From Terracidiphilus sp. (GTDB lineage Bacteria > Acidobacteriota > Terriglobia > Terriglobales > Acidobacteriaceae), in assembly GCA_050015795.1 (NCBI GenBank), contig JBEKAS010000001.1, positions 2,118 through 66,117 of the forward strand: 64,000 nucleotides of DNA, given 5' to 3'. The position numbers and the translations under genes are program-made. Below, piece after piece: positions 34,965 through 51,681 of this stretch (positions are counted from its first letter, which is position 1; each line of letters starts with the position of its first letter). The notes beneath the pieces were generated by a model. That model was not told where the DNA came from, ran no database searches, and worked only from the letters and a program-made list of their open reading frames with translations.

Positions 34965-37073
34965 TTGGCTAGCAACTTTACGGTTCAAGATGTGCTGGGA
35001 ATCCTCATAGTCCTTCCTTTCTTTTCGCTGGCCCTGATTGCCCCTGGCTACCTTATTGGCTTTGCTTCGAATGTCCTGGACTTCAGGCGAAGGGGCTTCT
35101 CCGAGCGATTGCTGCTGGCCATCGCGATCTCAGCCGCAGTGTCGCCTTATGCGATCAACATTTTATGCCGCTTTTTCTCTGTCGGAATTGTATCGGCGCT
35201 TTACCTTTTGCTCGGTGTCGCGTTCGTGGCCAGGCTTCTGCTTGAATGGAGACGCAGCAATTACGTGTTTCATATTGATTTACATAGGACTACCAAGCTA
35301 GCCATCTGTTTGGTTTCTGTGTGGATTGTTGTTTGCCTCATCTCGCTGCCGGACATGCAACTGGGACAGAAAATTTACTCTGCGGCGGCGACCTGGGACT
35401 ACTCGGTGCGCAGTCCCTTCATCGCTTCGGCGCTTCGCACTGGTGCTCCGCCTGCTAGTCCATTTTTCTATCCGGGACACTCCGTACCTGCGCGCTATTA
35501 CTACTACTGGAACGTATTATGCGCATTGCCGGCATTCATGTCGCGGGGCAGTGCCCGGGTTACGCTCTACGCCAGTTGCATATGGAGCGGCCTGCTTCTC
35601 GCTTCAATGATTCCCATCTATTTGAAGCATTTTCTCGAGCAATCTTCCAAATTGCGCACCGCATCTCTCGTCGGGATTGCAATACTTTCGGTGACGGGCC
35701 TGGATTTGATTCCGACCCTTGGGATTATTGCCTTTGCGCATGTACATCTGCCTGCCGATATGGAATGGTGGGATCCGTGCGAGATCGCATCGTGGCTGGA
35801 TGCATCGATCTGGGTACCTCATCATGTAGCGGCGCTGGTGGCCTGCCTGGCGGCGTATTTGTTTCTCTGGAAGGCCACATGCAAAGCAGACTCCTCGACA
35901 CGGATTTGGCTCATTGCGCTTGCTGCGCTTGGCTTCACCAGTGCCGCTGGGCTTTCCGTTTACGTCACGTTCGCCTTCGGGGGATTCATCGTCACATGGG
36001 AGGCATACCTGCTGATGCGAGGTAAGTTTTCCGCCGCGGTTATTCATGGTGCTGCAGGCACCCTGGCTCTGCTGTTCTCAGTCGGTTACATTCGAGATCT
36101 TCTCGGCCCTGGAACGAGCGCTAGCGGGTCCAGCGGAGCAAGCAGCCATTTTGTTGCGTTTGCTCTGCGGCAACTTCCCTTTGTATTCGATTTTCACAAC
36201 AACTTAGCCAATTTCAGCCTTTGGGTTCTGCTTGCCCTCCTCATTCTTTTTCTTGAACTGGGGGTATATATGTTGGTCGGCCTGATTCAGGCAAACCGCG
36301 ATTGGCGCCGATGGCGAACTCTTTCAGAGGCACAGAAGGCATTGTGGGTTATGGCCGGTTCTTCCCTCGTGATGATCATGTTTGTTCGGTCAACCGTGAT
36401 CGGAGCCAACGATCTCGCCTCGAGAGGCTCCATGGTTCTGCAGTTTGTACTTCTTCTTTGGACCACCGTCTATCTGACGAATCGCTTTTCAGCTCATCGA
36501 GAAGCACCGGCCAGGGGCCTGTCGGACCAGCAGTTGTTCGACGCGACGCTCTTCTTGCTTTTGGCAATTGGCGGTGCATCGACTCTCTATCAGTTGGGAA
36601 TGCTCCGTGTTTACACGCTTTTGAGCGATCGGTACCATTGGACAGATTTTATGCAGCTGGCAAACGGAGATGAGACCTTTGCCCTCCGCAGCGCATACGC
36701 GGAGTTAGATCGCGTGGTACCGGCAAACGCGGTGGTCCAATACAACCCCGATAGCAAACTGACCACTCCGATGCTGATCTATTCTCGCTATCAGCAGGCA
36801 GCTGGAGATCCTGGCTGCATTACGACATTCGGTGGATCAATGGCCGAGTGCGCGCCCGTGCAAGCCGGATTACAAGTTATATTCGATCCTCAGGCTGGCA
36901 GGTTTTCCTCAAAGGCCGAGGTAGATAAGATTTGCCAGGCGTTGCACATCAATGTGCTGATAGTGAACGCTCGCGATCCCATATGGAATAGAAGAGATAC
37001 TTGGGTTTGGCAAGATACTCCCATGATCCAGAATAAATTCGTTCGGGTTTACCGGTGCGGAAGCGGTCCCTGA
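34965..37073 (+). CDS. Large polytopic membrane protein, putative GT-C glycosyltransferase
   Basis: Many TMs, an early loop with WDYSVR...PPASPFF...RYYYYW, WVPHH, and a soluble C-terminal domain. Confidence 0.6.
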   Translation: MASNFTVQDVLGILIVLPFFSLALIAPGYLIGFASNVLDFRRRGFSERLLLAIAISAAVSPYAINILCRFFSVGIVSALYLLLGVAFVARLLLEWRRSNYVFHIDLHRTTKLAICLVSVWIVVCLISLPDMQLGQKIYSAAATWDYSVRSPFIASALRTGAPPASPFFYPGHSVPARYYYYWNVLCALPAFMSRGSARVTLYASCIWSGLLLASMIPIYLKHFLEQSSKLRTASLVGIAILSVTGLDLIPTLGIIAFAHVHLPADMEWWDPCEIASWLDASIWVPHHVAALVACLAAYLFLWKATCKADSSTRIWLIALAALGFTSAAGLSVYVTFAFGGFIVTWEAYLLMRGKFSAAVIHGAAGTLALLFSVGYIRDLLGPGTSASGSSGASSHFVAFALRQLPFVFDFHNNLANFSLWVLLALLILFLELGVYMLVGLIQANRDWRRWRTLSEAQKALWVMAGSSLVMIMFVRSTVIGANDLASRGSMVLQFVLLLWTTVYLTNRFSAHREAPARGLSDQQLFDATLFLLLAIGGASTLYQLGMLRVYTLLSDRYHWTDFMQLANGDETFALRSAYAELDRVVPANAVVQYNPDSKLTTPMLIYSRYQQAAGDPGCITTFGGSMAECAPVQAGLQVIFDPQAGRFSSKAEVDKICQALHINVLIVNARDPIWNRRDTWVWQDTPMIQNKFVRVYRCGSGP

Positions 37074-37210: not shown

Positions 37211-38071
37211 ATGGTCGCATGGATCGCAACGGGCTTTTGCCTGCTTTGGCTTTGGACTAGGGCCGTAGGGCTGCCCGAAGCCCTCCAGGGATGCGCGTGG
37301 GTCATTGTGCGCATGGCCTTTCCGCGCAGGCCATCCTGGGCGAAGGCGATCATGCCTCGACCGAGAATCGTGGAAGTCCGTATTCCCGGCCATCCGTACG
37401 TGTATTACGCGCGATGGCCAGCCTCCGACCTGCACATTCTGCACACCGTGGTCCGGCGTGGTGAGTACGCCCCCTTGGACCGCTATCTCGACAGCAGGCG
37501 GGAGATTCTCTTCCTCGATCTCGGAGCCAATATCGGCGCAACGTCGCGGTACTTCCTCAATCGCTATCCGGGATCGAGCGTGCTTGCCGTGGAACCCGAT
37601 TCCGCCAATATTGAAATGTTCCGCAGGAATCTAGAACCGTATCACGATCGGGTTCGTCTAATTCATGCCGCTGTGTGGAACTGCAATACCACGCTGGTGT
37701 TCGACCAGGAGTCGACGCAAACGGGAACCGAAGCGGGGATCCGTCTTCGCGAATCCGCGCCCGGTGAAGCGACCGCGGACTCTGTGCAGGGTGTCGACAT
37801 TCCGACTCTGCTCGCCGGAAATGGCGTGACGATGCACAGCCAGATCGTGGTGAAGATGGATGTGGAAGGCAGCGAGGAAGCGATTTTCCGGGGTTCGAAC
37901 CTGGAGTGGCTAGACAAGGTCAGCTGCATGGCGATCGAGCTTCACGATCACGTGAACCCGAACTGCAGCCGAAATTTCTATGCAGCGATGCAAGGCCGGA
38001 TGCGCGGGACCCCGCAAAAGATCAGTGAAACGCTCTTCGTGGGGCTCAGCGGTGGTTCAACCGCGGCATAA
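37211..38071 (+). CDS. FkbM-family methyltransferase
   Basis: LDLGANIG, VEPDSAN, HAAVW, VKMDVEGSE and IELHD. Confidence 0.88.
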   Translation: MVAWIATGFCLLWLWTRAVGLPEALQGCAWVIVRMAFPRRPSWAKAIMPRPRIVEVRIPGHPYVYYARWPASDLHILHTVVRRGEYAPLDRYLDSRREILFLDLGANIGATSRYFLNRYPGSSVLAVEPDSANIEMFRRNLEPYHDRVRLIHAAVWNCNTTLVFDQESTQTGTEAGIRLRESAPGEATADSVQGVDIPTLLAGNGVTMHSQIVVKMDVEGSEEAIFRGSNLEWLDKVSCMAIELHDHVNPNCSRNFYAAMQGRMRGTPQKISETLFVGLSGGSTAA

Positions 38072-38175: not shown

Positions 38176-40416
38176 TTACGGGCGGCTTGGGATGTTGGAG
38201 GGCTTGACATGCGGCGAGGCGGCGTCCCCGACTGAAGCAGACTTTTTTACAGGGACATTTCCTCGAAGCGGCATGGGGGCCGATTCGCTCAGTTTCTGCA
38301 GCATCCATGTGAATGGGACGGCGGCAAGCAGATCAAGTACGTAGTGCTCGCCGGTCGCAAGGATTGTGAAGGCCGTTAGCAACGTGAAGACAAATGCAGC
38401 GCGCCTAAGCCAGATTGGACCGGCGTTCAGCCACAACAGCGCGGCCCACACCAAGTGCATCGAGGGCATACAATTGCGAGCGGCGTGGGGGTCGCCTGCG
38501 TGTATTGGACCTACAGCGGGCACGAGCAAATAACAAGGCAGGGCCAAGATTGCGCCAAAGCACAAGGCCCGCGCCAATTGGCCGCGAGCTTTCCCCTTCG
38601 TGTATGCGAACACGATTGCTATCATCAGCGGAAGATTTTCATAGACACAGTTCACAGCGGCCAGCCGCAGTGAGTTTGCCAAGGTCCAATTCCGCAGCAC
38701 CGCCCCGATGCCGAAGTCGGCTTTGAGCAAGATAGCGTCGAATAGATTTGGAGTCAGGTTGGCAACGAGCTTGTTGAAAAAGTTCGCATATGCGACGGAC
38801 AAGGGCAACAAAACTGCAATCTGGAAGTTCTGTTTGGCGATCTGGCTGCCACTGGCGGCCTGAAACGCCAATACGATCGTCCCGCTGCAACCGAGCATCA
38901 TGAGCGCAGCAATCAACGGCTGAACATGGCACCAAGCGGCCAAGCAGAACAGCGGAGTTGCTACCGCAAGCAGGTGGGGGACGCGCGACTTGTTAAAGCT
39001 GAAGCAGAGGATTGCGCCGCCGAAAAACGCCGACACAGCGAAGCCAGGCCTCACTTTAAAGGTCACCACGCACGCGGCAAACGTTACATATAGCAATATG
39101 AGAACAACCCAAAGGCAGACGAGCGCGAACGATTTCAATGAAGGGCCGGAGTTTGAGTGCACCTGACGAGGTTCGGTTACGAAATTTGTTTCAGAGCCGG
39201 CGCTTAAGGATGCCGTCATGCAGCGATCGGGCGGGACGGCATACATGACGGTCTGGAATCCGTCTCCTTCGTAAGCGCGCAGATACAACCTGTGCTCCGG
39301 GAGCATCTCCCGGACGAGGAGCGGAATGCGCCAGATGTCGTTTTGCGTATGGTAAACGCAGATGGCAAGGATGGGCCGATCGCGCCGAATGACCTTTGCT
39401 GCGCCGCGTAAAGCATCGTACTCCGCCCCCTCAATATCCATTTTGATGAAGGTCAACGGAGTGTCTGCGAAGAGCTCGTCGATCGGATAACACTCTACCG
39501 GAAGTCCCTCGGCTGATATCTTCGCGCCAGTCTGGCCTGAGTGAGCAAAGTGTACAACTTCGCGCGTTGCGCCCACTGCAAAGTGAATGAGCCTTAACTT
39601 TGCTTGAAGGGGCTCAGGCAAGATGTCGCGATACGCTTTGAGCCTTGAAAATGAAACATTGTCGGCTTCAAGCGCATAGAACAGGTCAAAGCGATCTCCA
39701 CGTTTTCGGATCAGGTCTTGCGTCATCTCACCACTTGTCGCACCGCAATCCAGAAAGCGATCTTGATCCGAAAGACTGAAAATTTCCTTTGGGAAGTATG
39801 TGTTTTCGGTGGGTCGACCAGGGAGGCCGTTTAAATCTCCACGGGCGCGTAGACGAATGTTTGCGTTGAATATGGCTCGCGATTCAAACTCAGACCAAAT
39901 ATTCTCCGCCGCCAGCACACAGCTACTTTCTTGGTAGAGTTTGTGCGGCAAGTCATTCAACAGACATGGAAGAAATATCTCGGAGAACCGCCAATGAAGA
40001 AATGTATATGGGGCGACTTGGTCGCACCCATACTCGCGCAGCTGTTGATCTGTCTCACGGAACCAATGAAACTCGTTCCAGATGGTAACGAGAAAAACTG
40101 AGTCGGTGCCGTAAAGCTCTGCCGCTTTTACAGGTGGAAGGATCTCTAAGCCATCAACGTGCGCACCCCATCGTTCACGGTTGTTATCACTGAATGCAAG
40201 GGGCTTTACACCAATCCCCTGCAGGGCGCCGGCCGCCCGCCTGCCGAGATTTCCGGAGCCGAAAAGAACGACTCGGTTGTTTCGCGTGCGAAGCAGTTCT
40301 TCGAGCGCGTGTTGCTCGCGGTGCATTACCGAATCGAGAGGCTCCTGAAGTAACTCGCTAAGAGATTCTGCATTCATCCCACTGGTTCCTCTCGTAGATC
40401 CCTGCGAATGATTCAT
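38176..40416 (-). CDS. FkbM methyltransferase fused to a PAP2/AUR1-type membrane domain
   Basis: N-terminal VLFGSGNLG, DCGA, FIKMDIEGAE and ICVYH. C-terminal TMs carry MPSMH and GEHYVLD. ATGA-coupled to the ThDP gene. Confidence 0.75.
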   Translation of the reverse strand: MNHSQGSTRGTSGMNAESLSELLQEPLDSVMHREQHALEELLRTRNNRVVLFGSGNLGRRAAGALQGIGVKPLAFSDNNRERWGAHVDGLEILPPVKAAELYGTDSVFLVTIWNEFHWFRETDQQLREYGCDQVAPYTFLHWRFSEIFLPCLLNDLPHKLYQESSCVLAAENIWSEFESRAIFNANIRLRARGDLNGLPGRPTENTYFPKEIFSLSDQDRFLDCGATSGEMTQDLIRKRGDRFDLFYALEADNVSFSRLKAYRDILPEPLQAKLRLIHFAVGATREVVHFAHSGQTGAKISAEGLPVECYPIDELFADTPLTFIKMDIEGAEYDALRGAAKVIRRDRPILAICVYHTQNDIWRIPLLVREMLPEHRLYLRAYEGDGFQTVMYAVPPDRCMTASLSAGSETNFVTEPRQVHSNSGPSLKSFALVCLWVVLILLYVTFAACVVTFKVRPGFAVSAFFGGAILCFSFNKSRVPHLLAVATPLFCLAAWCHVQPLIAALMMLGCSGTIVLAFQAASGSQIAKQNFQIAVLLPLSVAYANFFNKLVANLTPNLFDAILLKADFGIGAVLRNWTLANSLRLAAVNCVYENLPLMIAIVFAYTKGKARGQLARALCFGAILALPCYLLVPAVGPIHAGDPHAARNCMPSMHLVWAALLWLNAGPIWLRRAAFVFTLLTAFTILATGEHYVLDLLAAVPFTWMLQKLSESAPMPLRGNVPVKKSASVGDAASPHVKPSNIPSRP

Positions 40417-42233
40417 TCCGGCAGCGGTTTCACGATCATGTTCGCCAGAAACTCCTCGCGCGGGAGGAACGGGAACAGATCCTCCAGCGGTTTGGAGACC
40501 ATCGATCCGTCAGGGTTCTGGTACGACTGGAGGCGCGGCGCGCGCATTTCGTCGAGAATAACGTGCACATCAACGATCACGGGACCGTCCATCGCCAGGG
40601 CGCGCCTGACGTCGTCGCGCAGATGTCTCTGATCTTCAATCACAACGGATGGAATGTTGTAGGCCGCGGCCACCTTGCTCATATTGGGGACAGTAAGGCC
40701 GGTGCTGCTGTCGCAGCCAATGTTGGGCTTGCCAAAATAACCTTTCTGCGAGGCACGGATGGACGCGTACCCGTCGTTATTCAGGACGAAGAACTTCACC
40801 GGCAGCTTGAGCCGTGAGGCCGTTTCCAGCTCCTGAATATTGAACTGAAAACCACCGTCGCCATCGACGAGGATGGTGCGCCTGCGGCCGCCACCGATGC
40901 AGACCGCAAGAGACATCGGCAGACCGTATCCCATGGCCCCCAAACCGGCCGTGTGGTAGATGCGCTGACCGTTGCGCGTAGGACAGGCGAGCAGAAAAAT
41001 CTCTATCCCGCTGCCCGAGCTGCCGGAGACAAGCAAGTCGTCGGGATTGGATTCGGTGCCGATCACCTCAGCGAGATGAAAGATGCTCACCTTGCTGTCG
41101 GGTTTGCGATGCTCGTCCGTTACCACGGGGTAGCGCGTTTTCCAGTCGGCGCAGCGCGCGTTCCATGCAGTGTGGTCTTGCATCTTGATGGAGTCTTGTT
41201 GCCGTAGCAGCTCCTCAAGAAACGCTTTTGCGTCTGTGCAGATGGGTTGCTGGATATGTGGATGGAGTTTCTTCAATTCGGCGGCGTCGATGTCCACAGC
41301 GGCCTTCCAGGCTTCCCGCGCCAAATTCTGCGGAGCATAGCCGGTAATGGCAAAGTCGAGGCGAACTCCGATGGCGAGCAGAAAATCACTGTTCTGCAGG
41401 GCGAAATTAGCGCCGCGCGCCGCGACAGCACCCGGCCGGCCGACAAAGGTCGGTTCGTCGCTGGGCACCATGTCGGCGGCGCACCAGGTGGCGACGGTCG
41501 GAACGCGCAGCAAATTGCGAAACTCTTCAAATTCCGTAGTGGCATGCGCAAGCCGGATCCCATTGCCGGCAAAAAGAAGCGGGCGCTCGGACTGGTTCAG
41601 TTTTTCGACCAGGCGGCGGACTTCCTGTTTCAGGCTGGCGTTGCCCGGGTGTTCTTCCAGCTCAGCCGGATCGAAAGCGCGCAAAGAGGTGGGATCTTCA
41701 ATCGGCGATGCTTGCACGTCGAGAGGGATGTCGATCCATACCGGCCCGGGCCGGCCGTTGAGGGCAAGATAAACAGCCTTCTCCATGTGGTATCGGATGT
41801 CCTTCGGCTCGAGAACCGTGACGGCGTACTTGGTAATCGGTTTGACGATCGAGACGATGTCCATCTCCTGCACGCCGAGCTGGCGCATGCCGAGCGGTCG
41901 TCCATCCTTGTCAAACATCCGATCGGGGCGCTTGACCTGGCCGGAGACAACCAGCATGGGCGTCGAGTCGAGCCAGGCGCCTGCAACGCCGGTAACAGCG
42001 TTGGTGCCGCCGGGCCCGGTTGTTACCATGCAGACCCCGAGGTGGTTGGTAACTTTGGCGTAAGCCTCGGCGCACATCGCGCTGGCCTGCTCATGCGAGT
42101 TACAGACCGGCTCGATTGCCGCCGCTGCTCCCAGCGACTGGTTCAGGTGCATGGCGCCGCCACCGGTTACCAGAAACACGTGCTTCACGCCCTGGTCAAC
42201 AATGAATCGAACAACGTAGTCAGAAAGCTTCAT
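40413..42233 (-). CDS. Thiamine-pyrophosphate-dependent enzyme (acetolactate-synthase fold, YerE-like)
   Basis: MKLSDY..., HEQASAMCAE, TTGPGGTN and GDGGFQFN...NNDGY ThDP motif. Confidence 0.88.
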   Translation of the reverse strand: MKLSDYVVRFIVDQGVKHVFLVTGGGAMHLNQSLGAAAAIEPVCNSHEQASAMCAEAYAKVTNHLGVCMVTTGPGGTNAVTGVAGAWLDSTPMLVVSGQVKRPDRMFDKDGRPLGMRQLGVQEMDIVSIVKPITKYAVTVLEPKDIRYHMEKAVYLALNGRPGPVWIDIPLDVQASPIEDPTSLRAFDPAELEEHPGNASLKQEVRRLVEKLNQSERPLLFAGNGIRLAHATTEFEEFRNLLRVPTVATWCAADMVPSDEPTFVGRPGAVAARGANFALQNSDFLLAIGVRLDFAITGYAPQNLAREAWKAAVDIDAAELKKLHPHIQQPICTDAKAFLEELLRQQDSIKMQDHTAWNARCADWKTRYPVVTDEHRKPDSKVSIFHLAEVIGTESNPDDLLVSGSSGSGIEIFLLACPTRNGQRIYHTAGLGAMGYGLPMSLAVCIGGGRRRTILVDGDGGFQFNIQELETASRLKLPVKFFVLNNDGYASIRASQKGYFGKPNIGCDSSTGLTVPNMSKVAAAYNIPSVVIEDQRHLRDDVRRALAMDGPVIVDVHVILDEMRAPRLQSYQNPDGSMVSKPLEDLFPFLPREEFLANMIVKPLPE

Positions 42234-42264
42234 AAGTGGAACCGCCGATGGTTTTGGCCGTGAG

Positions 42265-42792
42265 TCATGGGCGTGAAAAGACCTCCTGAGCACGCAGGCC
42301 TCGCGCCGCCAGTAGCGCTTCGATCAGCTCACGGACCGCACCGTTGCCGCCGGTATTCCGGGCAACAAATTTCGCCTGGGCGAGAACATCTGAGACCGCG
42401 CTGGCAGGAGCGGCGGAGAAACCGGCAATCTGCATCGCGGGGAGATCATTCACGTCGTCTCCCATGTAGCAAATTTCCGCGAGCTCGATGCCTGCCGATG
42501 TCGCAATCTCGCGCAGCGCAGTTGCTTTGTCACGGCAACCTTTTATGACGTAGCGGATGTGCATCTTTTCCGCATAACGGCTCACCAGCGGGCTATCCTC
42601 GCCGGAGACCAGCGCCAGTTCGAAGCCTGCTCGCCGCGCGAGGGAGATCCCCATGATGTCGGCGAAGCAGAAGCGCTTCCACTCTTCACCGCCGGGCCCC
42701 CACCAGAGCCCGCCATCGGTGAGCACTCCATCGACATCAAACACGACGGCGCGGATGCGTTCGAGGCCGCCGTTTGCAGTATTGGGTTCCAT
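42265..42792 (-). CDS. KdsC-family HAD phosphatase
   Basis: FDVDGVLTDG, DIMGI, VSGEDS, KA and YMGDDVNDL. 175 aa from ATG 42792. Confidence 0.88.
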   Translation of the reverse strand: MEPNTANGGLERIRAVVFDVDGVLTDGGLWWGPGGEEWKRFCFADIMGISLARRAGFELALVSGEDSPLVSRYAEKMHIRYVIKGCRDKATALREIATSAGIELAEICYMGDDVNDLPAMQIAGFSAAPASAVSDVLAQAKFVARNTGGNGAVRELIEALLAARGLRAQEVFSRP

Positions 42793-42802
42793 CGCGCCCG
42801 GT

Positions 42803-43678
42803 CTAGACCGCTGCGCCGACACGGCGAAGCTTCTTGATGATGGGAAATTCGCGCTCGTACACGCGCTTAATGCCGTCGCCCTTGGACTGCTCCCAAAGCC
42901 GAATGTCACGCACCAGGCGGGTGATGCCGTTCGGCTCCAGTGAAGCCGCTTGATCGGAGCCCCAACCCGCGCGGTCCAAGGTGATGTGGCGTTCGACACA
43001 GCAGGCCCCAAGCGCGGCCGCGCAGACACTGGTTGGAATACCAGTTTCGTGCCCGGAATAGCCAACTGGGACGCCGTAACGCGCCGCCATGACTGGGATC
43101 GCACGGAGATTCAACTCGTCGTAGTTAGCGGGGTAGGTGCTGGTGGCGTGCATCAAAATCAAGTCATCTTTTCCCAGAACCTCGAGGGCATGATCGATTT
43201 CGTCGTAGGTGCTCATTCCGGTAGAGAGAATGATCGGCTTGCCGGTCTTGCGAATGTACCGCAGCAGATTGTCGTCAGTGAGCGATGGGGAGGCAATCTT
43301 GTACACAGGGGGCTTGAATTGCTCCAGAAAATCCACTGAGCCCTCATCCCAGGGAGAGGCAAACCAAAGCATCTTCACCGACTTGCAAAATCTGTCGATT
43401 TCCGAATATTCTTCCTGCCCGAATTCAAGTCCATGTTTGAGGTCGTCATTGGTTGGACCGAAGGGATTCTCACGCGGTTTAGCCAGTTCTTCAGGTGTGT
43501 ACACCACCTCAATTGTGCGCTTCTGGAACTTGACGGCGTCGCATCCTGCCGCGACTGCTACGCTGATCAATCGCTTGGCGAGATCAATGTTACCGTTGTG
43601 GTTGATACCAATCTCCGCAACGATGAAACAGGGCTGATCGTCGCCGACCCACCTGTTGCCGACCTGGACCTTGCTCAT
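42803..43678 (-). CDS. NeuB-family PEP-dependent ulosonate synthase, short form without the C-terminal SAF domain
   Basis: IVAEIGINHNG, DAVKFQ, KIASPS, LSTGMS, HATSTYP, GYSGHE and ERHITLDR. 291 aa. Confidence 0.88.
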   Translation of the reverse strand: MSKVQVGNRWVGDDQPCFIVAEIGINHNGNIDLAKRLISVAVAAGCDAVKFQKRTIEVVYTPEELAKPRENPFGPTNDDLKHGLEFGQEEYSEIDRFCKSVKMLWFASPWDEGSVDFLEQFKPPVYKIASPSLTDDNLLRYIRKTGKPIILSTGMSTYDEIDHALEVLGKDDLILMHATSTYPANYDELNLRAIPVMAARYGVPVGYSGHETGIPTSVCAAALGACCVERHITLDRAGWGSDQAASLEPNGITRLVRDIRLWEQSKGDGIKRVYEREFPIIKKLRRVGAAV

Positions 43679-43913
43679 GGTTGATTCACTCCTTTTGCTG
43701 TTGCCCAGCAGCGGCCGCCAACGCAACGAACGAAGGCGGGTGTTGCGGACCCCACAGTTCTCTGGCAGCGACTGAGGCGGCGGCACAGCATCCCAGCCGG
43801 AAATTCATTTCAACATGGTTACCGAAGATACCACACTCACACGAAGGTGGAACCTAGTATGTTTCGTCGCCTGCGTGTTCCGCACCACGCAGTGCACGGT
43901 TTATGCTGATTGC

Positions 43914-44954
43914 GTGAAGCGACTGCCAACAGAAGACCTGGATCATGTCTTGGGGCAAACCCTGCCGCTGTGGGAGCAGGCGCGCGGCCGGCGCGTATTT
44001 ATTTCGGGGGGGACAGGGTTTTTTGGCGCATGGCTGCTGGAAAGCCTGGCCTATTGCAATCGCGAACTTGCGCTCGGCCTGTCCGCGACGGTTCTCAGCC
44101 GCGACCCGCGAGCATTCGCCCGGAGAATGCCGCACCTTGCCAGCGAGCCCTGCATCCAGATGCTCAAGGGAGATGTTCGCGATTTCGGCTTTCCTCGGGA
44201 GGAGTTCGAATACGTCATTCACGCCGCGGCGCCTACGTCCGGAGCCGCGGCCAGCCAACCGCTCGAATTGCTGAGTACCCTGCTTGATGGCACGAAACGC
44301 ATGCTTGCGTTTGCCAAGGCGCGGGGTGCAAAGAGATTTCTCCTGACAAGTTCCGGCGCGGTCTACGGGAGACAACCGCAGAATTTGAGCCATATCCCCG
44401 AGGATTACTTCGGAGGGCCGGAGTGGCTCGATCCGAATGCGGCCTATGCAGAGGGCAAACGGGTATCCGAACAGATGTGCTCTCTCGATGCGCGGGAATC
44501 CGGGATTGACTTCATCATTGCGCGATGCTTTGCCTTTGTTGGTCCGCACCTGCCGTTAAACCAGCACTTCGCAATCGGCAACTTTATCGCCGACGCTCTA
44601 GGCGGCAGGAACATCGCAGTCCGGTGCGACGGCACACCCATGCGCTCTTATCTCTACGGAGCCGATCTCGCGATCTGGCTATGGACGATGCTATTACATG
44701 ATTCCCTGCCGGGATCGAATCCACATGTGTTCAATGTCGGGTCTGGAGAGGCAATCAGTATTCGCGATCTGGCTCAGGTCGTGGTTGAGGAACTCGACCC
44801 CTCGCTGAAGGTGGAAGTTGCGAAGGCACCGATCGCCGGGGAGTCGCGTTTGCAGTACGTGCCGGACGTCCACGGTGCCGAAAACTGCCTGGGTCTGCGT
44901 CAGACAATCGGACTGCGGGAAGCCATCCGACGCACGGCAGCATGGCATCGCTGA
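43914..44954 (+). CDS. NAD-dependent epimerase/dehydratase/reductase (extended SDR)
   Basis: SGGTGFFG, TSSGAVYG, YAEGKR, ARCFAFVGP and RSYLYG. Start uncertain. Confidence 0.85.
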   Translation: MKRLPTEDLDHVLGQTLPLWEQARGRRVFISGGTGFFGAWLLESLAYCNRELALGLSATVLSRDPRAFARRMPHLASEPCIQMLKGDVRDFGFPREEFEYVIHAAAPTSGAAASQPLELLSTLLDGTKRMLAFAKARGAKRFLLTSSGAVYGRQPQNLSHIPEDYFGGPEWLDPNAAYAEGKRVSEQMCSLDARESGIDFIIARCFAFVGPHLPLNQHFAIGNFIADALGGRNIAVRCDGTPMRSYLYGADLAIWLWTMLLHDSLPGSNPHVFNVGSGEAISIRDLAQVVVEELDPSLKVEVAKAPIAGESRLQYVPDVHGAENCLGLRQTIGLREAIRRTAAWHR

Positions 44955-44964
44955 ACGTGCGCTC

Positions 44965-46317
44965 CTACCCAACCGGGACGCGGTTTGCGAACCGATGGAG
45001 ATTTGTGTTCGATGCAAAGCCGGTCATCACTTCTGCGACAAAATCGAGCATCGGTTTGGTCAGTCCCGGATACACGCCGATCCAGAACACGTTGTTCATC
45101 ACGAAATCGGAATTCGGCAAGGGGCCGGCGACACGAACCTCGCAGCTTTCGTAAGCTGGTTGCCGGAGGAGATTGCCGCCGAAGAGCAGTCTCGTGGCGA
45201 TCTTCTTCGCTTCAAGAGCGCGGATGATGTCTTCCCGCGTAAACGGTGCATCCTCGCGAACTCCGATCGGGAAGCCAAACCACGCGGGATCCGAGCCCGG
45301 CGTAGCCTCGGGCAGCATCAGGCAGTCCTTCATCGGTTTGAGCGCAGCCGACAAGTAGCGGAAGTTCTCCTTGCGGCATTCGATAAAGATGGGCAGCTTT
45401 TCGATCTGGGAGAGTCCTAGCGCCGCCTGCATGTCGGTGGCCTTCAAGTTGTATCCGATGTGCGAGTAGGTGTATTTGTGGTCGTACCCGCAAGGCAGTC
45501 TGCCCAGCTGCCAATCGAACCGCTTGCCGCAGGTATTGTCTTTACCGGGTTCGCACCAGCAGTCACGGCCCCAGTCGCGGAACGACTCGATCAGAACCTG
45601 CAGATCGGGCCGCTGGGTGAGCACCGCGCCGCCCTCGCCCATGGTGATGTGGTGAGCGGGATAAAAGCTGACAGTTGCGATGTCGCCAAAAGTGCCTACA
45701 TGGCGTCCCTTCCACGTGGATCCGAGCGCATCGCAGCAATCCTCAATCAGCCACAGGTGGTGTTTCTTTACAAAGTCCGTCACGGCGTCGAGGTCAAAGA
45801 CATTCCCCAACGTGTGCGCGATCATGACAGCTTTGGTCTTTTCGCTGCGGGCAGCTTCGAGTTGGCTCACATCGATCTCGTAAGTCGGCACCGTAACATC
45901 CACGCAAACCGGTACAAGTCGATTCTGAATGATCGGATTGACTGTCGTAGGAAATCCCGCGGCGACAGTAATCACTTCGTCGCCTGGCTTGAGCCGTCGG
46001 TCACCCAGCTTTGGCGAGGTGAGCGCACTGATGGCGAGGAGGTTGGCGGATGATCCGGAGTTGACGAGCGACGCGCAGCGGACTCCGACAAAACGCGCGA
46101 GCCTTCGCTCAAACTCTTCGGCAAAGCGCCCCGTCGTAAACCAGCAATCCAGTGCCGCATCAACCACAGAACTCAAATCGCTGCCGTCAATCACCTTGCC
46201 CGACACCGGCACAGGCGATTCGCCGGGTTTGAACTCGGCTGCTGGAAAGGCTTCAGCAAGATACTCGGTGCATAGATCGAGGATTTGCCGCCGAAGATGT
46301 GTTGCTTTATTCGTCAT
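44965..46317 (-). CDS. rfbH: CDP-4-keto-6-deoxy-D-glucose 3-dehydrase (E1, DdhC)
   Basis: [22 protein letters not shown] (His replaces the PLP Lys), RDWGRDCWC...NTC Fe-S motif and YDHKY. Confidence 0.92.
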
Positions 46318-46455
46318 CGACAATTAGTAACCTCAGCATACACACAATCAGAATCCGGTGGTGTACGCTATTGGCAAGCGAACACGATCTACAAACGGAT
46401 CCCGCGGTGAATTTGCCGCGGCGAACGTTAGCCCAAAGGATGCTAAGAAACTGGA

Positions 46456-47226
46456 ATGAAAGCAGTTATTCTGGCTGGCGGGCAGGGAACACGGCTGAGT
46501 GAGGAAACCAGCACGCGTCCCAAGCCTATGGTTGAGATCGGCGGCCGACCGATTCTGTGGCACATCCTCAAGATCTATTCCCAGCACGGCATCAACGACT
46601 TCGTCATCTGTTGTGGCTACAAGGGATATCTGATCAAAGAGTACTTCGCTAATTATTTTCTGCACATGTCCGACGTAACCTTCGACCTGCGGGGAAACCA
46701 CATGCAGGTGCATCAGAGCGTTGCGGAGCCTTGGCATATCACCCTTGTGGACACAGGAGACAACGCCGGGACCGGCGGACGGCTGCGAAAGGTTGCAGCG
46801 TACGTGGAGGGGGAGCGCGACTTCTGCATGACCTATGGGGACGGAGTCAGCGATCTGAATATCTCCGCATCGATCGATTTTCACAGAAGTCACGGTAAAT
46901 TGGTGACGGTAACGGCAGTTCAGCCCACGGCGCGCTTCGGGGGCTTGAGCTTCGTTGGAACAACCATCAGCGCATTCCGGGAAAAGCCCGAGGGGGAGGG
47001 CGGATGGATCAATGGCGGTTTTTTTGTCCTTTCGCCGGAGGTCATGAGCGAAATTCCCGACGAAAGCTCGATGTTTGAGCAAGAGCTCATGCAGAAGCTG
47101 TCGGCGAGGAATCAGGTACAGGCCTTTTTTCATCATGGGTTCTGGCAGCCAATGGATACGCTGCGAGACAAGCAAAGGCTTGAAGAACTGTGGACCTCCG
47201 GGAGGGCGCCTTGGAAGACGTGGTAG
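46456..47226 (+). CDS. rfbF: Glucose-1-phosphate cytidylyltransferase
   Basis: LAGGQGTRLSEET..RPKPMVEIG, GYKGYLIKEYF, TYGDG, WINGGFF and FWQPMDTLRD. Confidence 0.95.
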   Translation: MKAVILAGGQGTRLSEETSTRPKPMVEIGGRPILWHILKIYSQHGINDFVICCGYKGYLIKEYFANYFLHMSDVTFDLRGNHMQVHQSVAEPWHITLVDTGDNAGTGGRLRKVAAYVEGERDFCMTYGDGVSDLNISASIDFHRSHGKLVTVTAVQPTARFGGLSFVGTTISAFREKPEGEGGWINGGFFVLSPEVMSEIPDESSMFEQELMQKLSARNQVQAFFHHGFWQPMDTLRDKQRLEELWTSGRAPWKTW

Positions 47227-48290
47227 ACCAATGGCGGGGTCGACGTGTTTTCCTGACTGGTCACACGGGCTTTAAGGGCGGCTGGCTCGCACTCTGGCTT
47301 GCGCGCCGGGGAGCTCAGATAAGGGGATATGCGCTCGACCCGCCAACGGAACCCAATCTATTCACGGTCGCTTCCGTGGCTGCCGTTCTCGATGACATTC
47401 GCGGCGATATTCGGGACTACGCCAAGCTGGAATCCTCGATGACGGAGTTTCGTCCGGAGGTGGTTTTTCATCTTGCCGCGCAGCCGATCCTGCGGCGCTC
47501 GTATGCGGATCCGCTGGGCACATATTCGACCAACGTCATGGGCACTGCTCATGTGTTGGAGGCCGTTCGAAAGACTTCGAGTGTACGCGCGGTGGTGTGC
47601 GTCACTTCAGATAAGTGCTACCAGAATCAGGAATGGGTCTGGCCTTATCGCGAAACCGACGCACTTGGGGGATTTGACCCGTACTCCTCCAGCAAAGCAT
47701 GCACCGAAATCGTGTGCTCGGCCTACCGCAATTCCTTCTTCCCTGTGAACCGTCTGTATGAGCACCATGTCGCCTTGGCCACAGCGCGTGCCGGAAATGT
47801 GGTTGGGGGTGGAGACTGGTCGGAGGACCGCCTGGTTCCGGACCTGATCCGCGGATTTCAGGCGGGCCAGCCCGTGCTGATCAGGCATCCAAAGGCAGTT
47901 CGGCCATGGCAGCACGTCCTGGAACCCCTCAGCGGATACATGCTGCTGGCGGAGAAACTCCTCGATGCGCCTTCACAGTATTGCTCCTCGTTCAACTTCG
48001 GCCCGGGCCAAAAGGATGCGTGGCCGGTTGAGCGCATCGCGACAAAACTTGCGGAAATGTGGGGCGAGGGAGCCGGCTGGATACGCGATTCCGTTCCAGG
48101 CGTGCACGAGCACCACTCTCTGACGCTGGACACCAGCAAGGCCCGACGGCAACTTGGCTGGCAGCAGCGTCTGGGGATCGAAGCGAATTTGGAATGGACC
48201 ATGAAGTGGTACCGCAACTGGCAACAGGGCGCTGATATGAATCAGGCGACCTCGGCGCAAATCGCCAGATTTGAGCAACTCGCTCACTGA
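47220..48290 (+). CDS. rfbG: CDP-glucose 4,6-dehydratase
   Basis: TGHTGFKGGWL, HLAAQP, VTSDKCY, DPYSSSKA, RAGNVVGGGDW and RPWQHVLEPL. Confidence 0.95.
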   Translation: MVDQWRGRRVFLTGHTGFKGGWLALWLARRGAQIRGYALDPPTEPNLFTVASVAAVLDDIRGDIRDYAKLESSMTEFRPEVVFHLAAQPILRRSYADPLGTYSTNVMGTAHVLEAVRKTSSVRAVVCVTSDKCYQNQEWVWPYRETDALGGFDPYSSSKACTEIVCSAYRNSFFPVNRLYEHHVALATARAGNVVGGGDWSEDRLVPDLIRGFQAGQPVLIRHPKAVRPWQHVLEPLSGYMLLAEKLLDAPSQYCSSFNFGPGQKDAWPVERIATKLAEMWGEGAGWIRDSVPGVHEHHSLTLDTSKARRQLGWQQRLGIEANLEWTMKWYRNWQQGADMNQATSAQIARFEQLAH

Positions 48291-48395: not shown

Positions 48396-50144
48396 ATGAC
48401 GTCGTCTTCCGATGCCACCAGTCCGACGCTACTAATCCTGGAGTTCAGCCTGACAGCGTTCATGTTCGTGATTTCTTTCGGCTGGCCGGGAATCGGGCAA
48501 AATTTTTTCCGGCGAATGGAACGTTGGTTTGGAAAGCTGGCGCGAAGAAAATGGCTCGCGGTTATTTCTGTCGCCCTAAGCGTACTGCTGCTGCGCCTGG
48601 CCATCCTTCCTCTATTTCCGGTTCCGCTCCCGTTTTGTTCCGACGATTTCAGTTTTCTGTTAGCCGGTGATACTTTTGGCCACGGCAGACTGACCAATTT
48701 GACGCCTGCCATGTGGACCCATTTCGAGACTATCCACGTCACTATGAAACCGACGTATCAATCGATGTACTTCCCAGGGCAGGGGCTGATTCTTGCCGCC
48801 AGCAAGGTCGTCTTTGGTAATTCCTGGACTGGCCTGTTGATCGTGAGCGCGCTGATGTGCGCGGCGCTTTGCTGGATGCTGCAGGCGTGGCTTCCGGCCA
48901 GTTGGGCTTTGCTCGGCGGGATGATTGCCGTTCTGCGACTGGGGGTATTCAGTTACTGGACGAACACTTATCACGCCGGGGGTTCACTCGCGGCGCTGGG
49001 CGGAGCGCTGATTTTGGGCGCCCTGCCGCGACTGATAAGAACGACAAGGCTTCGCTATGCAATGCTGATGGGCATTGGCGTTGCGATATTGGTTCTTACG
49101 CGACCATACGAAGGCATACTGCTTTGCCTGCCGGTTGGGGTTGTGCTGGGCAACTGGATTTGGAAGGGAAAAAACCGGCCGGGCGTTGCTTCACTGACGG
49201 GCCTGGCCGCGGCGACGCTGGCGTTTGGTATTGCTGCTGTGGCTTGGATGGGCTACTACGACTATCGCGCCTTCGGTAATCCGCTGACTGCGCCGTACAC
49301 CATCGATCGCAATACTTACGCAATTGCCCCGTATTATGTGTGGCAGCAACCGCGGCCGGAGCCTACGTACAGATATGCTGAGATGCGGGCTTTCTATCAT
49401 GAAGGCGAATTGAGTTTCTACAACCACATCCATTCCGTGAAGGGGTTTGTGCCTTACACCCTGGAGAAAGTCGGATTTGTAATTCTCTTCTACGCTGGTT
49501 TTGCGCTGTTTCCTCCGTTGATTATGGTCCGCCGCATCTTTCTGGATCGGCGCATCCGCTTCCTTGTTGTGTGCGTGCTTGTGCTGGCAGGCGGGATGGT
49601 CATCGAGATCTTTCTTCTGCCGCACTATGTGGCGCCTTTCACGGCGGCTTTTTATGCCATCGGTTTGCAGGCTATGCGGCACATGCGGTTTTGGAAGCCG
49701 GAGGGGAAGCCGATGGGTTTGGCTTTGCTGCGGCTCACGATTGTGGTCTGTGTGTTGATGGCCGGAATACGGGTGGTTGCATCGCCTTTGCATTTTGGAC
49801 CGAACGAATTCCCACCGAGCGACTGGAACGAATCCTGGTTCGGCCCGGAGCATTTTGGAACAGAACGAGCGCAAATCGAAGCCCGGCTCAGCCAGCTTCC
49901 TGGGGGACAATTGGCGATCGTCCGCTACAGCCCTGACCACAACCCAGGGAACGAATGGGTTTACAACCGTGCTGACATCGATGGTTCCAAAGTCGTATGG
50001 GCACGGGATGCAGATGCTGCCGATAATTTAGAGTTGATCCATTACTACCAAAACCGGAAGGTCTGGCTGGTTGAGCCGGACCTGACACCTGCAAGAGTTT
50101 CGCCGTATGCAATATCGGAAAGGGCCGCCCATCCCACTCCGTGA
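48396..50144 (+). CDS. Polytopic membrane protein, putative GT-C glycosyltransferase
   Basis: First loop DDFSFLLAGDTF.HGRL...HFE...YQSMYFPGQ, then many TMs and a soluble C-terminal domain. Confidence 0.6.
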   Translation: MTSSSDATSPTLLILEFSLTAFMFVISFGWPGIGQNFFRRMERWFGKLARRKWLAVISVALSVLLLRLAILPLFPVPLPFCSDDFSFLLAGDTFGHGRLTNLTPAMWTHFETIHVTMKPTYQSMYFPGQGLILAASKVVFGNSWTGLLIVSALMCAALCWMLQAWLPASWALLGGMIAVLRLGVFSYWTNTYHAGGSLAALGGALILGALPRLIRTTRLRYAMLMGIGVAILVLTRPYEGILLCLPVGVVLGNWIWKGKNRPGVASLTGLAAATLAFGIAAVAWMGYYDYRAFGNPLTAPYTIDRNTYAIAPYYVWQQPRPEPTYRYAEMRAFYHEGELSFYNHIHSVKGFVPYTLEKVGFVILFYAGFALFPPLIMVRRIFLDRRIRFLVVCVLVLAGGMVIEIFLLPHYVAPFTAAFYAIGLQAMRHMRFWKPEGKPMGLALLRLTIVVCVLMAGIRVVASPLHFGPNEFPPSDWNESWFGPEHFGTERAQIEARLSQLPGGQLAIVRYSPDHNPGNEWVYNRADIDGSKVVWARDADAADNLELIHYYQNRKVWLVEPDLTPARVSPYAISERAAHPTP

Positions 50145-51681
50145 GCCGTCCACGCAAGCAGAATCTGCTCGCCCACGGCGATTTGCGTGGGTTCTCGAAG
50201 GGGTGCCCGACTCGACGCGCTCGCGTTGGCCGGAATGGGGCACGCTGTTTCTCTACGTGGCGCTGGTTGCCCTCGCAATTCCCTATCATGAACCGTGGGT
50301 TGACGAAGCCCAGGCGTGGCAGTTAGCGAGAAGTCTTTCTCTCACATCTCTATTCAAGACTTACATTCGTTACGAAGGTTCCCCGGGCCTTTGGCATTTC
50401 GTGCTGTGGATGATGACTCGCATCCATATCAGCTACGCAGGCGTGCACTGGATTTGCGGAGCGATTGCCACTGCCGCGGTGTGGCTTCTTCTTTTCAGAT
50501 CGCCCTTTTCCCGTTACCTGAAACTCTCGCTGCCGTTCACTTACTTTCTTTTATTTCAGTACGCGATTGTGGCGCGGAACTATGTACTCGCGCCATTACT
50601 GTTGTTTCTCGCCGCAATGGCATGGAAGAAAAGTCCAGTCAGGCTGGCCCTGGCTCTGGGGTTACTGGCAAATGTATCGCTCCACGCCGCGGTTATCTCT
50701 GGCGGACTCGCCGCCGTTTATGCCATCGAGCAATTTCGCAACCGAGAGAACAAATCTCTCAACCACCCGCGAAAACTCTTGATTGGTGCGTTGCTCCTTC
50801 TGGTCTTCTATGCGTTCGCGATCTGGACAGCATGGCCGCCCCGCGATCTTATCCTTTCCTCGGTCCGCGGGCAGTCCGGTATTTACCTTCTGCGAGGGGT
50901 CTTTTCGCTGGTGTGGCCGACGTGCCAACCGTGGGTCGTATCCATACCGTTCTGGACCGCAATAATATTGTGGCTCCACGCGCGCCACAAGCTCTATTTC
51001 CTTTTGCCGGTTCTGCTTTTTGCCGCCTTTTCCGGTGCAGTGTCAGTCGCCTGGTGGCATGCCGGACTCGTGATCCCACTTTTGATCTGCCTGCTTTGGA
51101 TTACTTGGCACGCGCCTGGAACAGTCGCCCGCGAGATTGAGATGGCTGGCCGCATCGCATTGGTGATCATGATTGCGACGCAGATTCTCTGGTCAGGTTA
51201 TGCGCTCTTCTACGACCACTACTATCCATACTCCCCCGATCCTGCAGCTGCGAAGTTCTTAAGCCCATATGTCAGGGAAGGCGCAACCATTGCGGTGACG
51301 TATATCAGTGGTCCCAACGATAAGCGCGTGCGCGCTTATCCCGCAGTGGGAATCTTGCCCTATTTCGACCATAATATTTATGCAAATACTCCTTATCCAT
51401 TCTGGTGGTGGAGCGATCAGGACCCATCTGAGGATCGGTTCAACGCCTTGTTGCCGTCTCACCCTCGCATCGTGATCGTTGAAGAAACACATAGCAATCC
51501 AGTAGTACATATGAATCTGGACAAGCCCAAGTACGTATTGTTAGTTAAGGATGGCTACAGGTTTGTGACCAGTTTCTGCGGATCCCAACCGTGGCAATTG
51601 GAACTCGGAGAAACCCTCTGCCACGTCGTCTTCGAGTACTCAGGACAGTCCGGCGCTTCGGGTATGCAGGCGCAAAGATAG
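50107..51681 (+). CDS. Polytopic membrane protein, putative GT-C glycosyltransferase
   Basis: HEPWVDEAQAWQLAR...YEGSPGLWH after the first TM (DE diacid typical of GT-C), QYAIVARNY and about ten TMs. Confidence 0.62.
   Translation: MQYRKGPPIPLREPSTQAESARPRRFAWVLEGVPDSTRSRWPEWGTLFLYVALVALAIPYHEPWVDEAQAWQLARSLSLTSLFKTYIRYEGSPGLWHFVLWMMTRIHISYAGVHWICGAIATAAVWLLLFRSPFSRYLKLSLPFTYFLLFQYAIVARNYVLAPLLLFLAAMAWKKSPVRLALALGLLANVSLHAAVISGGLAAVYAIEQFRNRENKSLNHPRKLLIGALLLLVFYAFAIWTAWPPRDLILSSVRGQSGIYLLRGVFSLVWPTCQPWVVSIPFWTAIILWLHARHKLYFLLPVLLFAAFSGAVSVAWWHAGLVIPLLICLLWITWHAPGTVAREIEMAGRIALVIMIATQILWSGYALFYDHYYPYSPDPAAAKFLSPYVREGATIAVTYISGPNDKRVRAYPAVGILPYFDHNIYANTPYPFWWWSDQDPSEDRFNALLPSHPRIVIVEETHSNPVVHMNLDKPKYVLLVKDGYRFVTSFCGSQPWQLELGETLCHVVFEYSGQSGASGMQAQR

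Follow-up and report, generated by a model that had tools for sequence, protein, structure and literature searches.

A PEP-dependent synthase and a phosphatase as candidate donor supply for a YerE-like carboligase in an Acidobacteriaceae glycan island

A glycan island of Terracidiphilus sp. brings together genes for a cytidine diphosphate (CDP)-activated dideoxy sugar and a compact minus-strand operon in which a gene for a sialic-acid-type synthase accompanies one for a thiamine diphosphate (ThDP)-dependent enzyme. We analysed this island in a 64,000-nucleotide stretch of contig JBEKAS010000001.1 (the window, by which we mean the whole stretch) from a 93%-complete metagenome-assembled genome (MAG). 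The operon begins with the gene for a NeuB-family phosphoenolpyruvate (PEP)-condensing synthase (42803..43678) and continues with those for a KdsC/YrbI-family C0 HAD phosphatase of 175 aa (42265..42792), a predicted YerE-like ThDP-dependent carboligase of 606 aa (40413..42233) and, last, a fusion of an FkbM methyltransferase (PF05050, residues 223-381) with a PAP2-type membrane domain (PF14378, residues 568-706; 38176..40416). Only 10 nt separate the first two genes and 31 nt the HAD and ThDP genes, and the ThDP and FkbM-PAP2 genes overlap by 4 nt. Divergent from the operon is a gene for an extended short-chain dehydrogenase/reductase (SDR) of the nucleotide-sugar-binding type (43815..44954, plus strand, start codon uncertain; PF01370, with uridine diphosphate-glucuronate decarboxylases as nearest structures at 7e-29), and beyond it lie rfbH (44965..46323, minus strand), rfbF (46456..47226, plus strand) and rfbG (47190..48290, plus strand). 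A preliminary description of this DNA, made from the sequence alone, had placed rfbF, rfbG, rfbH and an SDR gene beside a tight minus-strand operon for NeuB, HAD, ThDP and FkbM proteins, and we found all of these genes intact and in the order given there. While that arrangement stood, the extent of the island did not: the interval first drawn, 40413-48290, leaves the FkbM-PAP2 fusion just outside, whereas the real island spans approximately 33.4 to 51.7 kb of the window and also holds a GT2 glycosyltransferase, a GtrA-like protein, a second FkbM protein and three large open reading frames (ORFs).

The products of the three rfb genes all exceed NCBI equivalog cut-offs, RfbF/DdhA as a glucose-1-phosphate cytidylyltransferase (TIGR02623, 432.6 bits against a cut-off of 300), RfbG/DdhB as a CDP-glucose 4,6-dehydratase (TIGR02622, 490.5 bits against 278) and RfbH/DdhC, or E1, as a CDP-6-deoxy-L-threo-D-glycero-4-hexulose 3-dehydrase (NF011936, 727 bits against 423). 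RfbH also has the C-x-C-x7-C iron-sulfur motif of E1. Judged at the family level, these enzymes would convert glucose-1-phosphate to CDP-glucose, CDP-4-keto-6-deoxyglucose and then CDP-4-keto-3,6-dideoxy-D-glucose.

The ThDP protein has three thiamine pyrophosphate domains (PF02776, PF00205 and PF02775), a canonical GDG motif (GDGGFQFN...NNDGY) and the catalytic glutamate of an HEQ motif near its N-terminus, and is thus a member of the ThDP enzyme superfamily. Scores against acetolactate synthase (ALS) equivalogs reach at most 340 bits, with cut-offs of at least 538. Biosynthetic IlvB was considered as its identity and ruled out on these scores and because a separate IlvB-like gene is present on contig C27. 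The best solved relative is JanthE (8rph, 1e-112), followed by 5ahk (1e-71), which we take to be YerE of Pseudomonas protegens (PpYerE), and by plant ALS (approximately 1e-67). In a maximum-likelihood tree built with IQ-TREE, from which sequences of YerE, ErwE, MMAR_2332 and MyGE were absent, the protein falls in a 52-member group that is split from the IlvB of its own genome with 100/97 support; 5ahk falls outside this group. These comparisons indicate that the predicted carboligase belongs to the YerE-like group and is closer to it than to acetolactate synthases, and the grouping with IlvB that the preliminary description had named as fatal to its proposal did not occur. JanthE itself has been described as YerE-like and as a carboligase that accepts ketones, with CDG as an unusual motif (PMC12188165, PMC12247030). 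Like the scheme considered here, JanthE (from Janthinobacterium sp. HH01; 8rph, 8rpi, 8rpj) takes longer and 4-hydroxy 2-oxo acids, but the window protein differs from it in its canonical GDG motif, with BLAST identity of approximately 35-37%.

An ATG at 43678, preceded by GGAG, gives the NeuB protein a length of 291 aa. As had been noted from the sequence, it is short and without a SAF match, PF03102 (258 bits) being its only domain. It remains under the equivalog cut-offs (TIGR03569, 247 bits against 399.65; TIGR03586, or PseI, 210 against 340), so that it can be assigned to the Pfam NeuB family only; its conserved core, including two invariant His residues, is kept. No other NeuB-family gene is present in the genome. 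NeuB, LegI and PseI share this TIM-barrel family, PF03102, and its core residues, but in contrast to their systems the window enzyme lacks SAF and the island is without NeuC, NeuA and aminotransferase or acetyltransferase partners. The adjacent HAD protein has an FDVDGV motif and matches the subfamily model TIGR01670 above cut-off (115.7 bits against 106.95), while staying below the equivalogs for KdsC (NF007019, 116 bits against 208) and KDN-9-P phosphatase (NF058599, 128 against 180; KDN, 2-keto-3-deoxynononic acid). Its nearest structures are 3e81, a KDN-9-P phosphatase of Bacteroides thetaiotaomicron (5e-30), and 4um5. The genome has a further KdsC-like gene on contig C121.

The combination of these genes is reminiscent of published systems for long branched sugars. 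According to Steitz et al. (2022), such sugars arise as 4-hydroxy-2-oxo acids are decarboxylated and joined by YerE-like enzymes to CDP-4-keto-3,6-dideoxyglucose, with a YerF-like reduction as the next step. This scheme was put forward, and in part tested, for erwiniose, caryophyllose and the 'gastriose' of Mycobacterium gastri (PMC9306805). The systems concerned are ErwE/ErwF/ErwI/ErwJ of Pectobacterium atrosepticum, MMAR_2331/2332 of Mycobacterium marinum and MyGE/MygI of M. gastri; ErwE rejects pyruvate and requires 4-hydroxy-2-oxo acids, and the donor source in all clusters of that study is a pyruvate aldolase (PMC9306805). With the erwiniose, caryophyllose and gastriose systems the island shares the ddhABC/rfbFGH acceptor genes, a YerE-like ThDP gene beside donor-supply genes, an SDR-type reductase and, as proposed here, a 4-hydroxy-(3-deoxy)-2-oxo acid donor; a methyltransferase was likewise reported for the R. 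palustris cluster (PMC9306805). The difference lies in the donor supply: where erwiniose-type systems use an aldolase, pyruvate and a free aldehyde, the window has the PEP-dependent NeuB and the KdsC-type phosphatase. In addition, the window ThDP enzyme sits in a different clade from the sampled aldolase-associated enzymes, among which ErwE, MMAR_2332 and MyGE were not placed. The pathway to yersiniose A in Yersinia pseudotuberculosis is similar in that YerE carries out a ThDP-dependent addition at C4 of CDP-4-keto-3,6-dideoxyglucose, followed by ketoreduction by YerF, in an rfb/ddh context; unlike the scheme for the window, it uses pyruvate as donor, gives a C2 branch and needs no donor-supply genes.

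We therefore propose, with a probability that we put at roughly two in three, that the island makes a CDP-3,6-dideoxyhexose with a long hydroxylated branch at C4, for which an ulosonate made by NeuB and the phosphatase would serve as the ThDP donor. In the proposed pathway PEP and an aldose, free or phosphorylated, would be condensed by the SAF-less NeuB into a 3-deoxy-2-ulosonate or its phosphate, and the HAD enzyme would remove the terminal phosphate, either before or after this condensation. Acting on the ulosonate, the YerE-like enzyme would then remove CO2 and transfer the acyl anion that is left to C4 of the CDP-sugar, whose ketone would thereby become a tertiary alcohol. The SDR, a candidate side-chain ketoreductase by analogy with YerF and ErwF, would reduce the side chain's ketone, and the FkbM domains may O-methylate the product. 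Finally, the GtrB-like GT2 enzyme would load the finished sugar onto polyprenyl phosphate, the GtrA-like protein would assist in flipping it, and the large ORFs without family would carry out the final transfer to a surface glycan, the 702-aa ORF possibly as a periplasmic transferase. Supply by NeuB and a phosphatase implies a phosphorylated aldose precursor, and the polyol chain would probably be longer than that obtained by the aldolase route. That an ulosonate is the ThDP donor had already been put forward in the preliminary description, and the comparative genomics set out below speaks in favour of it, but the underlying donor principle is not original, having been published with an aldolase as the source (PMC9306805). 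What would be new is the supply of the donor by a PEP-dependent NeuB and a phosphatase, a narrower novelty than first held; in the literature that we searched we found no description of NeuB being linked to YerE-like enzymes.

Support for this interpretation comes from comparative genomics. A scan of one genome per species returned 453 relatives of the ThDP protein, the best 80 loci of which (73-88% identity) are nearly all labelled Acidobacteriota. The NeuB, HAD and ThDP genes are adjacent in 73 of these 80 loci, with the remainder mostly on short contigs, a degree of retention that places the arrangement far from chance. Within 10 kb, the same loci contain genes for RfbH (36 loci), RfbF (36), RfbG (32), GT2 (30) and GtrA-like proteins (27), and an FkbM-PAP2-like gene (at least half of the window protein matched) occurs in 40, often just downstream of the ThDP gene. 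Type-A loci, those with the SAF-less NeuB, include an SDR gene in 59 of 80 cases. All of them are from MAGs, and the one isolate genome among the fetched loci with a NeuB-like gene beside the ThDP gene is that of Desulfitobacterium sp. Sab5 (L212). Many apparent clusters of conserved neighbours among the loci turned out to be shadow ORFs. The pattern for which the preliminary description had called, neuB-kdsC-ThDP-rfbH clusters lacking neuA, recurs in hundreds of Acidobacteriota and in MAGs that carry labels of other groups, Firmicutes included.

The co-occurrence, whose lack of conservation the preliminary description would have taken as a refutation, also holds at the level of whole genomes. 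Among 121 genomes sampled from the genus, 17 have an orthologous ThDP gene, and every one of these also carries an ortholog of the SAF-less NeuB together with rfbH. Eight further genomes have other YerE-like genes (36-50% identical), seven of them with rfbH, usually less than 6 kb away; the eighth gene is a pseudogene. Overall, rfbH is found in 24 of the 25 genomes that have a YerE-like gene versus 9 of the 96 that do not (Fisher p = 6e-17; a second co-occurrence test gave p = 8e-20, both uncorrected for shared ancestry). YerE-like ThDP genes are therefore coupled to ddhABC/rfbFGH, mostly as adjacent genes, and in the window the two share one island. Because close matches were few in our sample of the phylum, we suspected at one point that the contig had been mis-binned; this was ruled out, as the alanyl-tRNA synthetase that it encodes shares 80-85% identity with its counterparts in congeners and the cluster is simply patchy in the genus.

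The tie to rfbH bears on the possibility that the ThDP enzyme carries out a different reaction with the ulosonate, either as a decarboxylase that releases a 2-deoxy-aldose or, like ALS, by adding the hydroxyethyl group of pyruvate to the C2 ketone, with the CDP-dideoxyhexose made separately. Decarboxylation is the first half-reaction throughout this enzyme family, acetolactate synthases are established to take 2-oxo acids as acceptors, and the domain architecture of the window protein is ALS-like. We nevertheless regard this alternative as unlikely, since a link between YerE-like genes and rfbH in all but one of 25 genomes, with the genes usually abutting, would go unexplained if the CDP-ketosugar were no substrate. 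Moreover, the nearest characterised relatives, JanthE and ErwE (PMC9306805), are ketone-accepting carboligases, and a nucleotidyltransferase that could serve a new free sugar is missing.

A second alternative concerns the fate of the NeuB product. NeuB and a YrbI-type phosphatase constitute the first half of the pathways to KDN and 3-deoxy-D-manno-octulosonic acid (KDO), exemplified by the KDN-9-P synthase and phosphatase of B. thetaiotaomicron and by KdsA/KdsC/KdsB, in which a PEP-dependent synthase is likewise followed by a YrbI-family C0 HAD enzyme. The two enzymes might thus make a KDN- or KDO-like acid that is activated with cytidine monophosphate (CMP) by KdsB and enters the glycan intact, while the ThDP enzyme uses pyruvate to form a yersiniose-type C2 branch. 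The genome does have a KdsB, and one glycan island often holds genes for several sugars. The window differs from the KDN and KDO pathways, however, in its SAF-less NeuB, in scores below equivalog level for both enzymes and in having no CMP-transferase; in the pathway that we favour the product would instead be consumed by decarboxylative ligation. The island had been described as devoid of a CMP-ulosonate synthetase and of NeuC, and in agreement with this a Pfam scan of all island ORFs of at least 150 aa detected no NeuA/KdsB-like or NeuC-like gene. Across the genome PF02348 was found only on contig C186 (KdsB), apart from a weak match on C213. Likewise, tblastn with the genome's own KdsB as query (a search that a very distant NeuA could escape) found no NeuA/KdsB-like gene in approximately 180 loci with a YerE-like gene, the sole match among the fetched loci being in an unrelated ALS locus. 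Together with the four lines of evidence given in the next two paragraphs, this leads us to consider the KDN/KDO-like alternative improbable, although somewhat less so than the preceding one.

Our strongest evidence is that the pairing of a NeuB-type gene with a YerE-like gene recurs independently, in more than one form. In most of the clusters fetched around other YerE-like genes, a NeuB-family gene of a different subtype adjoins the ThDP gene. The second subtype is fused to a cupin (501 aa in all), and after it comes a protein of 197 aa that has a DxDxV motif and no family match; the third, a NeuB of approximately 362 aa with SAF, lies beside a protein of the HAD_2 family (phosphoglycolate-phosphatase-like). 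All subtypes retain the invariant core residues of NeuB, and each corresponds to its own well-supported clade in the ThDP tree, so that the ThDP clades co-diversify with the NeuB subtype, which would not be expected if the ThDP enzyme simply used pyruvate. The SAF-less, type-A NeuB was encountered apart from the ThDP clade in one genome only, which is fragmentary. When a fusion of ThDP and HAD_2 domains was used as query across phyla, colinear rfbF-rfbG-rfbH-neuB-(197-aa protein)-ThDP operons came up in MAGs that bear the label deltaproteobacteria or Flavobacteriales. In MAGs with the labels Desulfobacteraceae, Bdellovibrionota and Actinobacteria the order neuB-(197-aa protein)-ThDP was seen, and the stretch retrieved around it has a smaller number of rfb genes or none. 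In a Lachnospiraceae locus, NeuB lies immediately upstream of such a ThDP-HAD_2 fusion; the existence of these fusion proteins likewise argues against a phosphatase that serves a separate, intact ulosonic acid. The window's own subtype extends to Verrucomicrobiota and Planctomycetota, where NeuB is 66-72% identical and a KdsC-type HAD is present in three of four loci. These recurrences also bear on the idea that the donor comes from central metabolism and that NeuB and the phosphatase act downstream of it or in parallel, for example on an aldose or another part of the glycan, their adjacency reflecting co-regulation only. The island is indeed a lower-GC, patchy glycan locus with many accessory genes. 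Three non-orthologous NeuB subtypes and three phosphatase types (the 197-aa DxDxV protein without family match being counted as one) are found in many phyla, always beside the ThDP gene, however, and we consider mere co-regulation very improbable, the least probable of the three alternatives.

Further evidence that the donor is a 4-hydroxy-2-oxo acid comes from clusters that have an aldolase in place of NeuB. In the JanthE family (80 loci from many phyla) the ThDP gene directly follows rfbF-rfbG-rfbH and is in turn followed by genes for a DmpF-type acetaldehyde dehydrogenase and a DmpG/HMGL-type aldolase rather than NeuB, a layout that is the erwiniose arrangement (ErwJ/ErwI route); an SDR is present in 73 of the 80. 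Of 183 ThDP genes in the loci that were fetched, a NeuB-family gene neighbours 89 and an aldolase gene 78, with both beside only one. NeuB and the aldolase are unrelated makers of 4-hydroxy-2-oxo acids, and their alternation beside YerE-like genes is what would be expected if that product is the ThDP donor; if NeuB made a separate sugar, this near-exclusivity would be hard to account for. Published work describes the physiological substrates of JanthE as unidentified. The genomic context suggests that JanthE might join 4-hydroxy-2-oxovalerate to CDP-4-keto-3,6-dideoxyglucose to form an erwiniose-type sugar. Examples of the JanthE-type layout, found among loci L106-L185 with an SDR gene after the aldolase gene, are those of Leptospira ilyithenensis (L179:4532-15840) and Pseudomonas sp. 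(L122). In the latter (strain P7548), tandem ThDP genes follow rfbH (L122:8199-11812), one encoding a PpYerE-like protein of 570 aa and the other a JanthE-like protein of 610 aa. Aldolase-containing clusters may also come with a phosphatase, in what is a fourth layout: in Clostridium cavendishii DSM 21758 (L213:7136-10530) and a Chitinispirillia MAG (L189:7094-10454) an HMGL-like aldolase gene is followed by the ThDP gene and one for HAD_2. A phosphatase thus accompanies an aldolase variant too, and some aldolase routes may accordingly begin with a phosphorylated aldehyde. The C. cavendishii locus also has genes for an FkbM methyltransferase, a radical-SAM (S-adenosylmethionine) protein and an RfbH-like, DegT-family protein nearby. 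A different variation is seen in locus L100 of another acidobacterium (G080; L100:5869-10770), where a gene for an AroB-related putative sugar-phosphate cyclase (TIGR04425, 339 bits against 400) lies between those for a NeuB with SAF and a YerE-like protein, and no HAD was detected in the cluster. AroB-type enzymes act on 3-deoxy-2-ulosonate phosphates, and the NeuB product of this cluster may therefore be cyclised and not dephosphorylated.

Some of the related clusters offer leads to the aldose substrate. Approximately 31 of them contain a gene for a GmhA-like sedoheptulose-7-phosphate isomerase, often directly upstream of the SAF-less NeuB gene. One such gene (L043:7756-8406, plus strand) encodes an SIS_2 protein that scores 219 bits against a cut-off of 276 for NF010546 and 200 against 209 for TIGR00441; equivalents are found, for example, in L036, L040-L042, L007, L008 and L197. 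In the other sampled cluster types we found no GmhA-like gene, except for a weak 29% match in a JanthE locus (L141). The cupin domain fused to the second NeuB subtype also resembles isomerases of sugars or phosphosugars, and together with the GmhA-like gene it hints at a step from ketose phosphate to aldose phosphate ahead of NeuB. The GmhA-like gene may point to heptose-7-phosphate as the substrate, which we treat as a lead. On a tentative view, which we hold with considerably less conviction than the pathway itself, NeuB would use a hexose, heptose or pentose phosphate to make a C8-C10 ulosonic donor (KDO- or KDN-like, or a heptose-derived deculosonate), giving a branched monosaccharide of 13-15 carbons, the largest described; NeuB, phosphatase and ThDP enzyme would then form a modular, horizontally exchanged system through which many bacteria of soil, water and the gut furnish their surfaces with very large branched sugars.

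Several observations weigh against the proposed pathway. The GmhA-like gene is absent from the window and from its own genome, where the query matched no more than part of a 404-aa ORF on contig C311, at 33%. Activation of the NeuB product by the housekeeping KdsB is conceivable in principle, and the co-occurrence statistics leave shared ancestry uncorrected. A few YerE-like clusters, such as that at L091, have neither NeuB nor an aldolase, and for some members of the family pyruvate is a possible donor. We also know of no report of long-chain branched sugars from Acidobacteriota. Finally, with the E3 reductase of the Pseudomonas L122 locus as query, we detected no AscD/DdhD-type E3 (Fer2, FAD_binding_6 and NAD_binding_1) in the island or in any acidobacterial locus, and in the 93%-complete genome itself only a 27% partial match that lacks the Fer2 part, so that RfbH would depend on a generic reductase encoded elsewhere. 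E3 is, however, nearby in only 10 of the 80 JanthE-type loci and missing from the other 70, which indicates that a generic reductase may serve. The L122 E3-type gene lies upstream of rfbF.

Among components of the bacterial envelope, long acyl-branched 3,6-dideoxy sugars stand out as rare and strongly immunogenic. A rationale for how they are made came only in 2022 and covers aldolase-derived donors alone (PMC9306805). If the proposed pathway is correct, a second, PEP-driven donor route would widen the predicted chemical space of bacterial sugars, and sialic-acid-type synthases would gain a role that involves no activation with CMP. It would also provide candidate physiological donors for the large YerE-like group, whose members are sought as biocatalysts for chiral tertiary alcohols, and would point to an undescribed surface glycan in the Acidobacteriaceae, a dominant and little-studied group of soil bacteria. 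The natural reaction suggested above for JanthE is a by-product of the analysis.

The part of the island that lies upstream of the FkbM-PAP2 gene contains, all on the plus strand, genes for a GT2 glycosyltransferase that resembles polyprenyl-phosphate sugar transferases of the GtrB/ArnC/PgfS kind (33407..34345; PF00535, 1.8e-23; nearest NCBIfam models PgfS and ArnC, both under cut-off), a small GtrA-like membrane protein that is a candidate flippase (34361..34834; PF04138, 9.9e-17), a 702-aa product without Pfam or NCBIfam match (34965..37073) and a stand-alone FkbM-family methyltransferase of 286 aa (37211..38071; PF05050; TIGR01444, 73.9 bits, above cut-off). The 702-aa ORF is weakly conserved, being found at 28-38% identity in 9 of the 80 related loci. 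At the other end of the island lie two large plus-strand ORFs of 582 and 524 aa (48396..51681), which have no family match and are poorly conserved members of the island, each found in only one of the 80 loci. The GT2 protein is 75-91% identical, and the adjacent GtrA-like protein, where found, 49-69% identical, across clusters with different ThDP and NeuB subtypes (L086, L088, L089, L092 and L093), in which the ThDP enzymes are only 39-47% identical. This pattern of conservation suggests a conserved lipid-carrier export chassis with exchangeable sugar cassettes.

The GC content of the island is 54-59%, against 60-64% in the flanks. Together with the presence of the cluster in so small a share of the genomes sampled from the genus, this is consistent with horizontal exchange. 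The lower GC content covers positions 28000-56000 of the window and hence the surroundings of the glycan island as well. Just upstream of the island is a gene for a 744-aa fused membrane/spermidine-synthase-like protein (29556-31790, minus strand; NF037959, fused MFS/spermidine synthase). Fusions were surveyed in the 150 closest representatives that a library of 1.8 billion proteins offered, and some YerE-like proteins (among P0124, P0126, P0130, P0171, P0197, P0233 and P0241) had a C-terminal HAD_2 phosphatase, SAM methyltransferase or radical-SAM/SPASM domain. Others had an N-terminal extension of approximately 250 aa, which gave a cupin match in two proteins (in one of them also weakly resembling phosphomannose isomerase) and no family match in two.

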